Origin: Escherichia phage Mizar
Sequence record: PV714129.1
DNA length: 64,000 bases
Reading direction: 5' to 3' (one strand)
Part shown: positions 6,798-7,379 of the stretch, in pieces
How positions within the stretch are numbered: position 1 is the first letter of the stretch
Layout of the letters: every line of letters begins with the position of its first letter
The notes under the pieces: model-generated
The model's database searches: none
Told to the model about the DNA's origin: nothing
Seen by the model: the letters and a program-made list of their open reading frames with translations, nothing else
Position numbers and translations under genes: made by a program

Positions 6798-6825
6798 AAT
6801 ATTCTCCTCTTGTTTTGATAGGTCT

Positions 6826-6854
6826 ATAGTATCATAGACCATAGTTGTTGTACA
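6826..6854 (-). promoter_or_regulatory. T4-type early promoter inside a palindromic cassette (approx.)
   Basis: minus-sense TGTACA (-35-like), 17-nt spacer, TACTAT (-10), embedded in the inverted repeat ggtctatagtatcatagacc. Confidence 0.5.
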
Positions 6855-7379
6855 TCATTTTAGCAAAATAAAATCAACTTGTTCTGCCAATGAACGTCTA
6901 AACATTAATTGACAACTTCCGAGGATGAAATCAGGTGCTTCATAGACCGCGATGTAGTATCCTTTAGCTTTCAAGAGTTCAACATCCACCTGGTCATCAA
7001 ACCATGCATAAACCGCGTCAACGCTTTCAAATCCAAAATAGAACCCTTGAGCCCAATCTTTGTTCAATTCAAATGTGTGCTCAATTCTATGGTATCTTAA
7101 GATATTTTGTTCAAGGAGTTTGTCTTCATTTACTGTAGGACGATTAGGGACATTATAGTTGTCGCCGTGATGGTAGAAGTTACCTGAGATTATTCCATGT
7201 TTATCAAGGAACTCCCATGTTTCTTCAGAGTTGTCAGTGCCAGACCAACCGTAAGGTGAGCGAGGTTCTTTATTCCAAGAGGTTTCCCAAATTCTGACGG
7301 CTTTACCGTCTTCGATAACAATTCTTGGTAATGATTCACGTTGAGTACAAAAACTACGTTCTACGCGATAAACTAACAT
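6855..7379 (-). CDS. hypothetical protein (174 aa)
   Basis: ORF with ATG and AGAGGAG SD directly downstream of an early promoter. Confidence 0.6.
   Translation of the reverse strand: MLVYRVERSFCTQRESLPRIVIEDGKAVRIWETSWNKEPRSPYGWSGTDNSEETWEFLDKHGIISGNFYHHGDNYNVPNRPTVNEDKLLEQNILRYHRIEHTFELNKDWAQGFYFGFESVDAVYAWFDDQVDVELLKAKGYYIAVYEAPDFILGSCQLMFRRSLAEQVDFILLK

Follow-up and report, generated by a model that had tools for sequence, protein, structure and literature searches.

Sigma-70 early-promoter cassettes with embedded hairpins in the early region of Escherichia phage Mizar

On the minus strand of Escherichia phage Mizar (sequence record PV714129.1) a short element recurs in front of genes, which raises the question of what exactly is repeated, and what role the inverted repeats within it could play. 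The window referred to here is the whole stretch of 64,000 nucleotides that was analysed. RB69 and PhAPEC2 are collinear with it over bases 1 to ~63,400, and the Mosigvirus genomes of Shigella phage SHSML-52-1, PhAPEC2 and ATK47 match bases 5000-9000 at 96-98% identity; sequence comparison therefore identifies the window as the early region, from rIIA to ipIII, of an RB69-like T4-type coliphage (Mosigvirus). Nearly every gene lies on the minus strand, no tRNAs were found in the window, and the whole window gave no match to Rfam 15 at gathering score. An earlier note on this DNA had described a palindromic early-promoter cassette of 40-50 nt and related it to the promoter early stem-loop (PeSL) cassettes of T4-type phages. 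The element is real and the phenomenon is wider than proposed, comprising 25 cassettes, but the near-identity and the inverted repeat do not extend as far as was claimed. The cassettes are the RB69-group instance of the described T4-type early promoters and PeSL cassettes and are as such mostly known; added here is that their hairpins are statistically real, conserved in structure over sequence, and present at the same rate in T4 and RB49.

A pattern scan for T[TG][TG]ACN, 16-17 nt and TAnnnT, followed by a Shine-Dalgarno (SD) sequence and an ATG, identified 25 minus-strand early-promoter cassettes in the window, each of which is labelled by its upper coordinate (cassette 6854, for example, is 6795..6854). 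The -35 hexamer is GTTTAC or GTGTAC, the spacer of 16-17 nt often has TGn at its end, and the -10 hexamer TAnnAT is followed by the conserved discriminator/start motif AGACCTATCAAC and a leader of ~20 nt with a GGAG-type SD. In 22 of the 25 cassettes the -10 is 26-31 nt, mostly 26-29 nt, away from the ATG, the exceptions being 17 nt (58847), 34 nt (42354) and 49 nt (12079), and the intergenic gap of 55-64 nt is usually filled entirely by one cassette. All six copies named before on the minus strand are such promoter-like cassettes with a following SD and ATG, and so are the two supposed variants (19163 and 57779). The same UP-like tract, GTTTAC -35, TGn, -10 and preference for C at -3 to -1 characterize the early promoters of T4 and RB69 (Nolan et al. 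2006, PMC1524935; Hinton 2010, PMC2988021), and 57 early promoters were predicted in RB69, many at orthologous positions (PMC1524935). Orthologues of T4 early genes stand downstream of the cassettes, and the regB cassette can be aligned with the regB promoter region of T4, which is described as a typical early promoter (PMC3014915). With 50 sites vs 52.6 in shuffles, a generic sigma-70 scan did not help in this A/T-rich DNA.

Published PeSLs combine a sigma-70-like promoter, an A/T-rich tract, a stem-loop located in the -35/-10 interval or overlapping the -10, and an SD with an ATG (PMC2839356, PMC4122927). A sigma-70-like early promoter is present in all 25 cassettes, with an SD and start codon at the 3' end, and the 20 nt that precede the -35 are rich in A/T (72% vs 63% background), more so than any of 2000 random sets, the highest of which reached 70.8%. 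The two clusters that the cassettes form, at 6.8-20.6 kb and 41.4-61.9 kb, lie in hyperplastic (variable, non-essential) regions, where PeSLs are preferentially located.

The near-identity over 40-50 nt did not hold. In the alignment the six named copies are 90% identical only from -10 to +13 (19 nt); in the -35 and spacer they share 45% identity vs 41% for the cassette background, and from +14 to the ATG 44% vs 42%. The near-identical core of ~20 nt, TAYTATAGACCTATCAA, runs from -12 to +8, is the same as the consensus of all 25 cassettes and is also found in the T4 ipII promoter and in other genera. Its counterpart on the plus strand, the 21-mer TTGATAGGTCTATAGTATCAT, occurs seven times at <=3 mismatches (6815, 12041, 19865, 20598, 41413, 53580 and 55046), with 0.00 expected from shuffles. 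The in-frame translated element YDTIDLSKQEEN, which had been taken as a sign of nucleotide-level identity, is indeed encoded at 6854 and 55084 by TAT GAT ACT ATA GAC CTA TCA AAA CAA GAG GAG AAT. As the core equals the consensus of all cassettes and identity outside it is at background level, what looks like a "repeat" is the section from -12 to +8 that is conserved in a very strong type of promoter, and not a mobile unit of 40-50 nt. A scan of viral contigs with a 14-mer of the core found, among the matches listed, at least 18 promoter cassettes in other ~170-kb T4-like contigs; none of the at least 67 listed matches outside T4-like contigs had the cassette architecture, and these were mostly single matches by chance.

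The inverted repeat GGTCTAT...ATAGACC, ascribed before to every copy, is present in 6854, 19904 and 53618, but 12079, 20637 and 55084 lack its 5' arm. The form GGTCTAT-N6-ATAGACC with a 6-nt loop occurs exactly only once, and an inverted repeat is also found at 41456, as ATAGGTCT/AGACCTAT. In the variants 19163 and 57779 the pairing is kept but the arms differ (GGACTA/TAGTCC). Altogether 17 of the 25 cassettes contain an embedded hairpin, with arms that are unrelated in sequence between cassettes, and three classes can be distinguished. In class A (6854, 19163, 19904, 41456, 42354, 42654, 53618 and 57779) the spacer pairs with bases just after the -10, which is placed in the loop. In class B (7433, 13457, 43782, 58228 and 61858) the SD region has the spacer or the -10 as its pairing partner; the minimum-free-energy (MFE) helix at 13457 joins the -10/discriminator to the SD-ATG region, and at 58228 the spacer pairs with the SD so that the helix merely spans the -10. 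Class C (8382, 8939, 50957 and 51977) has a small hairpin, CAACCA-AGGA-TGGTTG, inside the spacer. Among the eight hairpin-free cassettes, three (14938, 20637 and 55084) have a canonical UUCG-loop terminator directly upstream, which leaves five cassettes with neither kind of stem-loop.

These hairpins exceed chance expectation. The mean duplex energy between spacer and downstream sequence is -10.1 kcal/mol vs -5.4 kcal/mol for shuffled spacers (lowest of 300 shuffles -6.8), a duplex of <= -10 kcal/mol is found in 10 of 23 cassettes vs 1.3 expected, and when partners were permuted between cassettes the observed mean was reached in 0 of 2000 trials. T4 gave 10 of 23 promoters vs 1.9 expected in the same pipeline, and RB49, the genome in which PeSLs were defined, 6 of 17 vs 1.5. 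Because the enrichment recurs in T4 and RB49, the embedded hairpins are a property of T4-type early promoters generally and not of this window. It is the pairing that is conserved and not the arm sequence: the cassettes use arm pairs such as GGTCTAT/ATAGACC, GGACTA/TAGTCC, CGATAGGAAG/CTTCCTATCG and GAGAGA/TCTCTC, the last of which is GAGAGC/GCTCTC in the PhAPEC2 orthologue, a compensatory change. Another compensatory pair occurs within class C (CAACCA/TGGTTG alongside CATCCA/TGGATG), and the mobD.2 promoter hairpin has 13 bp in the window and 15 bp with unrelated arms in the T4 orthologue.

The class B helix of regB is also found in T4, a Kanagawavirus and a Gelderlandvirus, each time built from different arms. 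Among 31 distinct regB leader sequences from 42 IMG/VR loci, most show pairing between promoter and SD, with at least 10 different arm pairs across genera; a spacer-SD helix of >=7 bp is present in 17 leaders, and five have a different or weak pairing. A plain MAFFT alignment placed the SD out of register, and an ungapped alignment anchored on the SD/pairing register was used instead. In this alignment 10 of 13 pairs have changes on both sides, and the covariation score is 0.394 vs 0.149 in shuffles (reached by 0 of 500) and 0.06-0.09 with slid partners, whereby such anchoring favours structure and the slid-partner controls are ~5-fold lower.

Folding predictions indicate what this helix could do. 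For regB and motB.2 the predicted probability that the SD is unpaired falls from 0.69-0.78 in the transcript of the own promoter to 0.00 in read-through RNA (motB.2: 0.78 to 0.00), and the SD of class A cassettes, including the ATAGACC copies, is predicted to stay accessible. In the T4 genes e, soc, 49 and I-TevI a helix sequesters the SD/AUG, and its 5' strand precedes the start site of the proximal promoter; translation is limited to transcripts of that promoter, and read-through RNA is silent (PMC3014915). Class B is predicted to be alike: five of the 25 cassettes, none of them an ATAGACC copy, have the SD or AUG in a helix, with 5' arms in the spacer or -10, upstream of the likely start site, and for regB the helix is backed by covariation among relatives. 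The proximal promoter of the T4 set is late (gp55, TATAAATA) and delays expression, whereas that of class B is a sigma-70 early promoter and would confine expression to the immediate-early window; class B would therefore work like the e/soc/49/I-TevI set without belonging to it. A further test of SD masking was set aside. It asked if the SD core is paired in the MFE structure, and the result (29 of 31 vs a mean of 20 with shuffled spacers) was not discriminating, since an SD rich in purines easily finds a partner in whatever pyrimidine-rich sequence lies upstream. The ensemble test behind the accessibility values has the same weakness beyond the two strongest cases, regB and motB.2.

Other geometries of masking were observed as well. 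In L038/L006 (Gaprivervirus RZ), L046 and L047, and at 13400-13435 of the window, the -10 and discriminator (e.g. TTATGATTATC) pair with the SD-ATG region (GATAATCATGA), the 5' arm still being upstream of the start site. In RB49, two promoters (46488 and 45322) use the stretch immediately before the -35 (TCTTAGAAAGTGT; TTTTTAGTTG) as the partner of the SD-proximal leader (ACACTTTCTAGGAGA; CAACTAAGGAG), which would be a third way to mask the SD on read-through RNA only and is undiscussed in the PeSL papers.

The individual cassettes, all on the minus strand, are the following.

6795..6854, minus strand: cef cassette; class A hairpin GGTCTATG/TATAGACC (6821-6840), the loop of which holds the -10 TACTAT.
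7377..7433, minus strand: motB.2 cassette; class B, spacer TTCTCCTCTGGTT with SD region AACCAGAGGAGAA, 7384-7428, -23.9 kcal/mol.
8321..8382, minus strand: motB cassette; class C in the -35/spacer, CATCCA-AGGA-TGGATG, the compensatory variant of CAACCA/TGGTTG.
8878..8939, minus strand: motB.1 cassette; class C, CAACCA-AGGA-TGGTTG.
12000..12079, minus strand: srd cassette; ATAGACCTATCA core without the 5' arm and a long leader, 49 nt from -10 to ATG.
12761..12820, minus strand: modA cassette; no significant hairpin.
13400..13457, minus strand: modB cassette; class B', -10/discriminator ATGATAGGC with SD-ATG region GGTCTATCAT.
14879..14938, minus strand: mrh.2 cassette; no embedded hairpin, but a canonical terminator with UUCG loop and T-run (14953-14974) immediately before the -35.
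19103..19163, minus strand: sp cassette, one of the earlier variants; class A GATGGACTA/TAGTCC-TATC, 19126-19152.
19415..19474, minus strand: imm cassette; no hairpin.
19845..19904, minus strand: imm.1 cassette; 12-bp class A hairpin 19870-19897, module junction 19886-19921.
20580..20637, minus strand: cassette of the RB69ORF040c homologue; recombinant, ORF041c missing and class B 5' arm lost.
41392..41456, minus strand: element before gene 55; extended -10 TGATATAAT, core AGACCTAT, 8-bp hairpin ATAGGTCT/AGACCTAT at 41416-41450, a good -35 lacking.
42287..42354, minus strand: cassette of the gene 55.3 region; -35 TATACA, class A GAGAGA/TCTCTC.
42592..42654, minus strand: cassette of the RB69ORF075c homologue; 12-bp class A ACGATAGGAAGA/TCTTCCTATCGT, cassette and open reading frame (ORF) absent from PhAPEC2.
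43724..43782, minus strand: 55.6 cassette; class B TCCTC.ATAG/CTATAGAGGA.
49918..49977, minus strand: cassette before nrdC.2; no significant hairpin.
50898..50957, minus strand: nrdC.3 cassette; class C, CAACCA-AGGA-TGGTTG.
51920..51977, minus strand: nrdC.5 cassette; class C, CAACCA-AGGA-TGGTTG.
53561..53618, minus strand: nrdC.8 cassette; 11-bp class A AGGTCTATGAT/ATTATAGACCT, 53585-53612.
55026..55084, minus strand: nrdC.10 cassette; core without a real hairpin, canonical terminator ~30 nt upstream of the -35 (about 55116-55132).
57720..57779, minus strand: mobD.2 cassette, the other earlier variant; 13-bp class A around TTGGTAGGACTA/TAGTCCTACCAA, 57740-57771.
58171..58228, minus strand: mobD.2a cassette; class B TTCTCCTC/GAGGAGAA.
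58800..58847, minus strand: rI.1 cassette; -35 TTGACA, no significant hairpin.
61800..61858, minus strand: regB cassette; 14-bp class B TTCTCCTCTAGTTG/CAACTAGAGGAGAA, 61809-61853, which buries the GGAG Shine-Dalgarno/RegB site and is conserved, with covariation, in Tevenvirinae.

A few observations can be attached to single entries. The class C hairpins span 8920-8935, 8363-8378, 50938-50953 and 51958-51973 on the minus strand, and the T4 promoters at 50972 and 2457 have CCACA-AGGA-TGTGG, in which the loop AAGGAT of class C is kept and the arms differ. The gene 55 element (41392-41456) has a MotA-box-like TGCTTTA 23 nt upstream, which is too far for a standard middle promoter, and a late-promoter-like TCTAAATA inside its hairpin loop. 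On the antisense (plus) strand, the cef-promoter hairpin at 6821-6840 followed by ATAGTTGTTG was scored as terminator-like by a simple scan, probably incidentally.

It had also been suggested that the cassettes bracket most accessory ORFs. This could not be confirmed, as only ~25 of ~111 genes are preceded by a cassette, a good number of which belong to the conserved early genes of T4 (cef, motB.2, srd, modA/B, sp, imm and regB), and an RB69-specific block at 23-31 kb is without any. The pattern scan found no early-promoter cassette between 20.7 and 41.4 kb, in the replication-gene block from genes 41 to 47, and the RB69-group-specific accessory genes located there are thus not cassette-flanked; this block within 20700-41400 encodes a thymidylate kinase, a peptidase, a phosphoheptose isomerase and an arabinose-5-phosphate isomerase.

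Compared with RB69 and PhAPEC2, the window shows sixteen indels or replacements; four of these have junctions inside cassettes and three at the upstream edge of a cassette. In the first of the four, ORF041c and its promoter are missing and a hybrid cassette is left at 20637, the -35 and upstream terminator (about 20646-20661) of which come from the ORF041c cassette and the downstream half from the ORF040c cassette. In the second, ORF102c is missing, and the 55084 cassette aligns to both ORF102c-flanking cassettes of RB69 and PhAPEC2 with a 53-nt overlap, and hence ORF102c was lost or gained between two cassettes. The third concerns ORF075c, which is absent together with its promoter from PhAPEC2, the junction being in the -35 hexamers, and in the fourth the 19904 cassette was swapped along with the gene upstream of it. 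As far as the aligned sequences tell, the four in-cassette junctions match the PeSL model, including its crossovers between -10 and SD.

Several differences to RB69 and PhAPEC2 were observed elsewhere. A window-specific insertion of 297 nt (55140-55436), absent from both, separates the stop codon of nrdC.11 from its terminator; it comes without a promoter cassette, its junctions are outside cassettes, and it encodes a protein of 88 amino acids (55137-55403, minus strand) with an N-terminal signal-peptide-like segment (MKKLVIGLFAVMMAFSVGA...). Away from cassettes, about 280 nt are extra near nrdC (48684-48962), with overlapping flanks that possibly reflect a duplication, the tk region (59420-59998) has 579 vs 187 nt, the interval between soc and gene 56 (15259-15620) has 362 vs 18/193 nt, and a divergent patch follows gene 47 (39668-40131).

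We think it probable that these are sigma-70 T4-type early-promoter cassettes with a hairpin layer that acts on read-through RNA, and that they are at the same time joints of exchange. Host sigma-70 RNA polymerase would read each cassette; the transcript of the own promoter would lack the 5' arm and have a free leader, and read-through RNA from an upstream early or middle promoter would carry both arms and could fold. With the 5' arm upstream of the presumed start, the hairpin is possible only in read-through RNA or in single-stranded DNA. On read-through RNA it would separate neighbouring cistrons. A class B hairpin would bury the GGAG, so that translation and exposure to RegB would take place only on transcripts of the own early promoter. 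A class A hairpin, located between the upstream stop codon and the downstream SD, could work as an attenuator, as a stabiliser of the upstream cistron's 3' end, or as both, and by analogy with one RB49 stem-loop, for which this was shown, a role as attenuator/insulator seems likeliest. Because ~20-60 nt are shared in a fixed register, the cassettes may serve as joints at which ORF modules are exchanged or deleted. The promoter architecture, the hairpin enrichment, the covariation and the junctions inside cassettes are seen in the sequences, and the start sites, the action at the RNA level and the direction of the effect are what we infer.

Several points weigh against this view. Eight of the 25 cassettes, including three of the six named copies, are hairpin-free; both arms of the 19904 (imm.1) hairpin are missing from the orthologous promoters of RB69 and PhAPEC2, the T4 sp promoter has no hairpin, and some regB promoters (L044 and L050) have a class A hairpin only. 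SD masking is clearly above shuffled-upstream controls in only 2-5 cassettes, and the argument about the own transcript uses start sites placed at the usual 7-nt distance from -10 to +1. The embedded hairpins have no U-tract behind them, and a terminator scan of 6-21 kb called none of them on the sense strand. The helices are almost all Watson-Crick and fold equally well on both strands (-11.3 kcal/mol sense vs -11.8 antisense), so that a DNA-level role would be compatible with them; internal mismatches number 15 G.T vs 7 A.C, which are not independent and make the lean only suggestive. Strand asymmetry was also considered as a test of RNA vs DNA and gave no discrimination, with G.U counts of 95 vs 97. 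Finally, the expected link between cassettes and gene-content breakpoints is borne out by the four junctions inside cassettes but not by any excess over other intergenic spacers, as indel junctions occur at about 30% of cassette-bearing vs 18% of other spacers, which is not significant; an apparent enrichment vanishes once other intergenic spacers instead of all gene junctions are the null.

Part of these findings would also be expected if the cassettes were plain strong early promoters, with functionless inverted repeats that result from templated correction of quasi-palindromes and patchy gene conversion between cassettes. Such a by-product would be in agreement with a repeated core that is merely the promoter consensus, with hairpins that are missing from eight cassettes and differ in presence between orthologous promoters, with arms at 19904 that came along with a swapped module, and with near-perfect Watson-Crick helices on both strands, as templated correction would give. 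We consider it unlikely, as it does not account for a 5-8 fold enrichment over shuffles in three distant genomes, nor for a regB helix that is kept across genera with at least 10 arm pairs and mostly the same partner, the SD: a by-product would not single out the SD as 3' arm again and again, and it would not occur in promoters only.

Alternatively, the inverted repeats may act in DNA, as cruciforms or single-strand hairpins at the -10 that modulate melting or shut-off, or that are cut by the junction and hairpin nucleases of the phage (endonuclease VII, gp46/47) and become recombination hot spots. Equal folding of both strands, hairpins of classes A and C that lie entirely in non-transcribed promoter DNA and the gene gain and loss junctions inside cassettes fit this idea, as do the still unexplained shut-off of T4 early promoters (PMC2988021, PMC3014915) and the mini-circles formed from RB49 PeSLs (PMC2839356). 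It is nevertheless improbable in our opinion, since the class B arms cover the SD, which is sensible only in RNA, the internal mismatches lean to G.T, the RNA-compatible kind, and indel junctions are not enriched over other spacers. Moreover, cruciforms do not form well from stems of 6-14 bp that carry loops of 4-20 nt.

That the stem-loops are ordinary intrinsic (Rho-independent) terminators of the upstream transcription unit, as the term "promoter-terminator motif" implies, is very unlikely, although in a reporter an RB49 PeSL stem-loop lowered the lacZ behind it to the same extent as rrnB T1 (PMC2839356) and, at 14938, 20637 and 55084, a canonical GC-rich terminator with UUCG loop stands shortly before the -35. 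The embedded hairpins are not followed by a U-tract; the sequence behind them is A-rich (ATAGACC followed by TATCAAAACA, CCTACCAA by AACAAACGG, and GGAGAA by ATCAAAATG), there were no sense-strand calls in the scanned 6-21 kb, and the canonical terminators of the phage (14953-14974, about 20646-20661 and about 55116-55132) are separate and use clearly different hairpins. An operator for a dimeric phage or host DNA-binding repressor of early promoters, which the symmetry of class A around the -10 and the unexplained early shut-off might suggest, can hardly be maintained, because such an operator would keep half-site sequences at a fixed spacing and not pairing, and what is seen are arms that are unrelated between cassettes and change by compensatory pairs, varying arm positions, loops of 4 to 20 nt and, in half of the near-identical "family", a missing arm.

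The hairpin-bearing early-promoter cassettes of the window can be compared with several known systems. With the PeSLs of RB49/phi1 (Arbiol et al. 2010, PMC2839356) they share the A/T tract, early promoter, stem-loop, SD and ATG, the multi-copy, intergenic arrangement and probably also the -10-to-SD crossovers of flanking copies that delete or insert ORFs. They differ in the -35 (GTTTAC/GTGTAC, TTGACA in RB49/phi1), in stems that are A/T-richer and not of the G(n)-loop-C(n) type, and in the subset that pairs with the SD, a feature undiscussed in PMC2839356; translation is not discussed in the PeSL papers, and the word occurs 0 times in PMC2839356. The PeSLs of T4 and PST (Comeau et al. 2014, PMC4122927, which also covers KVP40/nt-1) have the same promoter consensus TTTACW-N17-TAYWAT and adjoin indels, as some cassettes of the window do. 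In PST the stem-loop is just upstream of the promoter, as in cassettes 14938, 20637 and 55084; PMC4122927 places the PST/T4 stem-loops there, whereas in the window, and by our own scan in T4, they are mostly promoter-embedded. The early-promoter and PeSL interpretation of the earlier note is partly supported: the cassettes have the sequence-level features of the published description, but they are not uniformly palindromic, and half of the named family is among the eight without hairpin. Lambdoid morons likewise consist of a small gene with its own promoter, with or without a terminator, between resident genes, but they have no conserved flanking cassette for homologous exchange, whereas in the window the promoter cassette is the shared joint.

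Nolan 2006 (PMC1524935) presents promoters as sequence logos only and contains "stem-loop", "hairpin" and "palindrom" 0 times, and the early-promoter description of Hinton 2010 (PMC2988021), also a sequence logo, leaves inverted repeats and hairpins unmentioned. The regB promoter is described as a typical early promoter, RegB cleaves at the SD of regB itself, and RNA structure shields GGAG from RegB (PMC3014915); a hairpin of the regB leader is unmentioned in the T4 reviews. A description of the SD-masking promoter hairpin of regB was thus not found in the PeSL papers, Nolan 2006 or the T4 reviews, and older regB papers may mention one.

The cassettes help to annotate transcription units and to interpret how gene content differs between Mosigvirus genomes, which is not surprising. 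More tentatively, and with less than even confidence, we propose that early-promoter hairpins are a general regulatory layer of T4-type phages including T4, in which an anti-Shine-Dalgarno or insulating 5' arm in the untranscribed spacer lets the fate of a cistron be set by the promoter that made the RNA: for regB, motB.2 and, in T4, ipII and nrdC.8, translation and exposure to RegB would be limited to RNA from the gene's own immediate-early promoter, and on the abundant read-through RNA these genes would be silent and RegB-resistant. If this is true, the 60-nt cassettes would be self-insulating expression units for phage engineering. Early genes could then also be shut off by a post-transcriptional route, the position of PeSL stem-loops within promoters would have an explanation, and the classic T4 logic by which promoter choice gates translation would reach from late to early genes.

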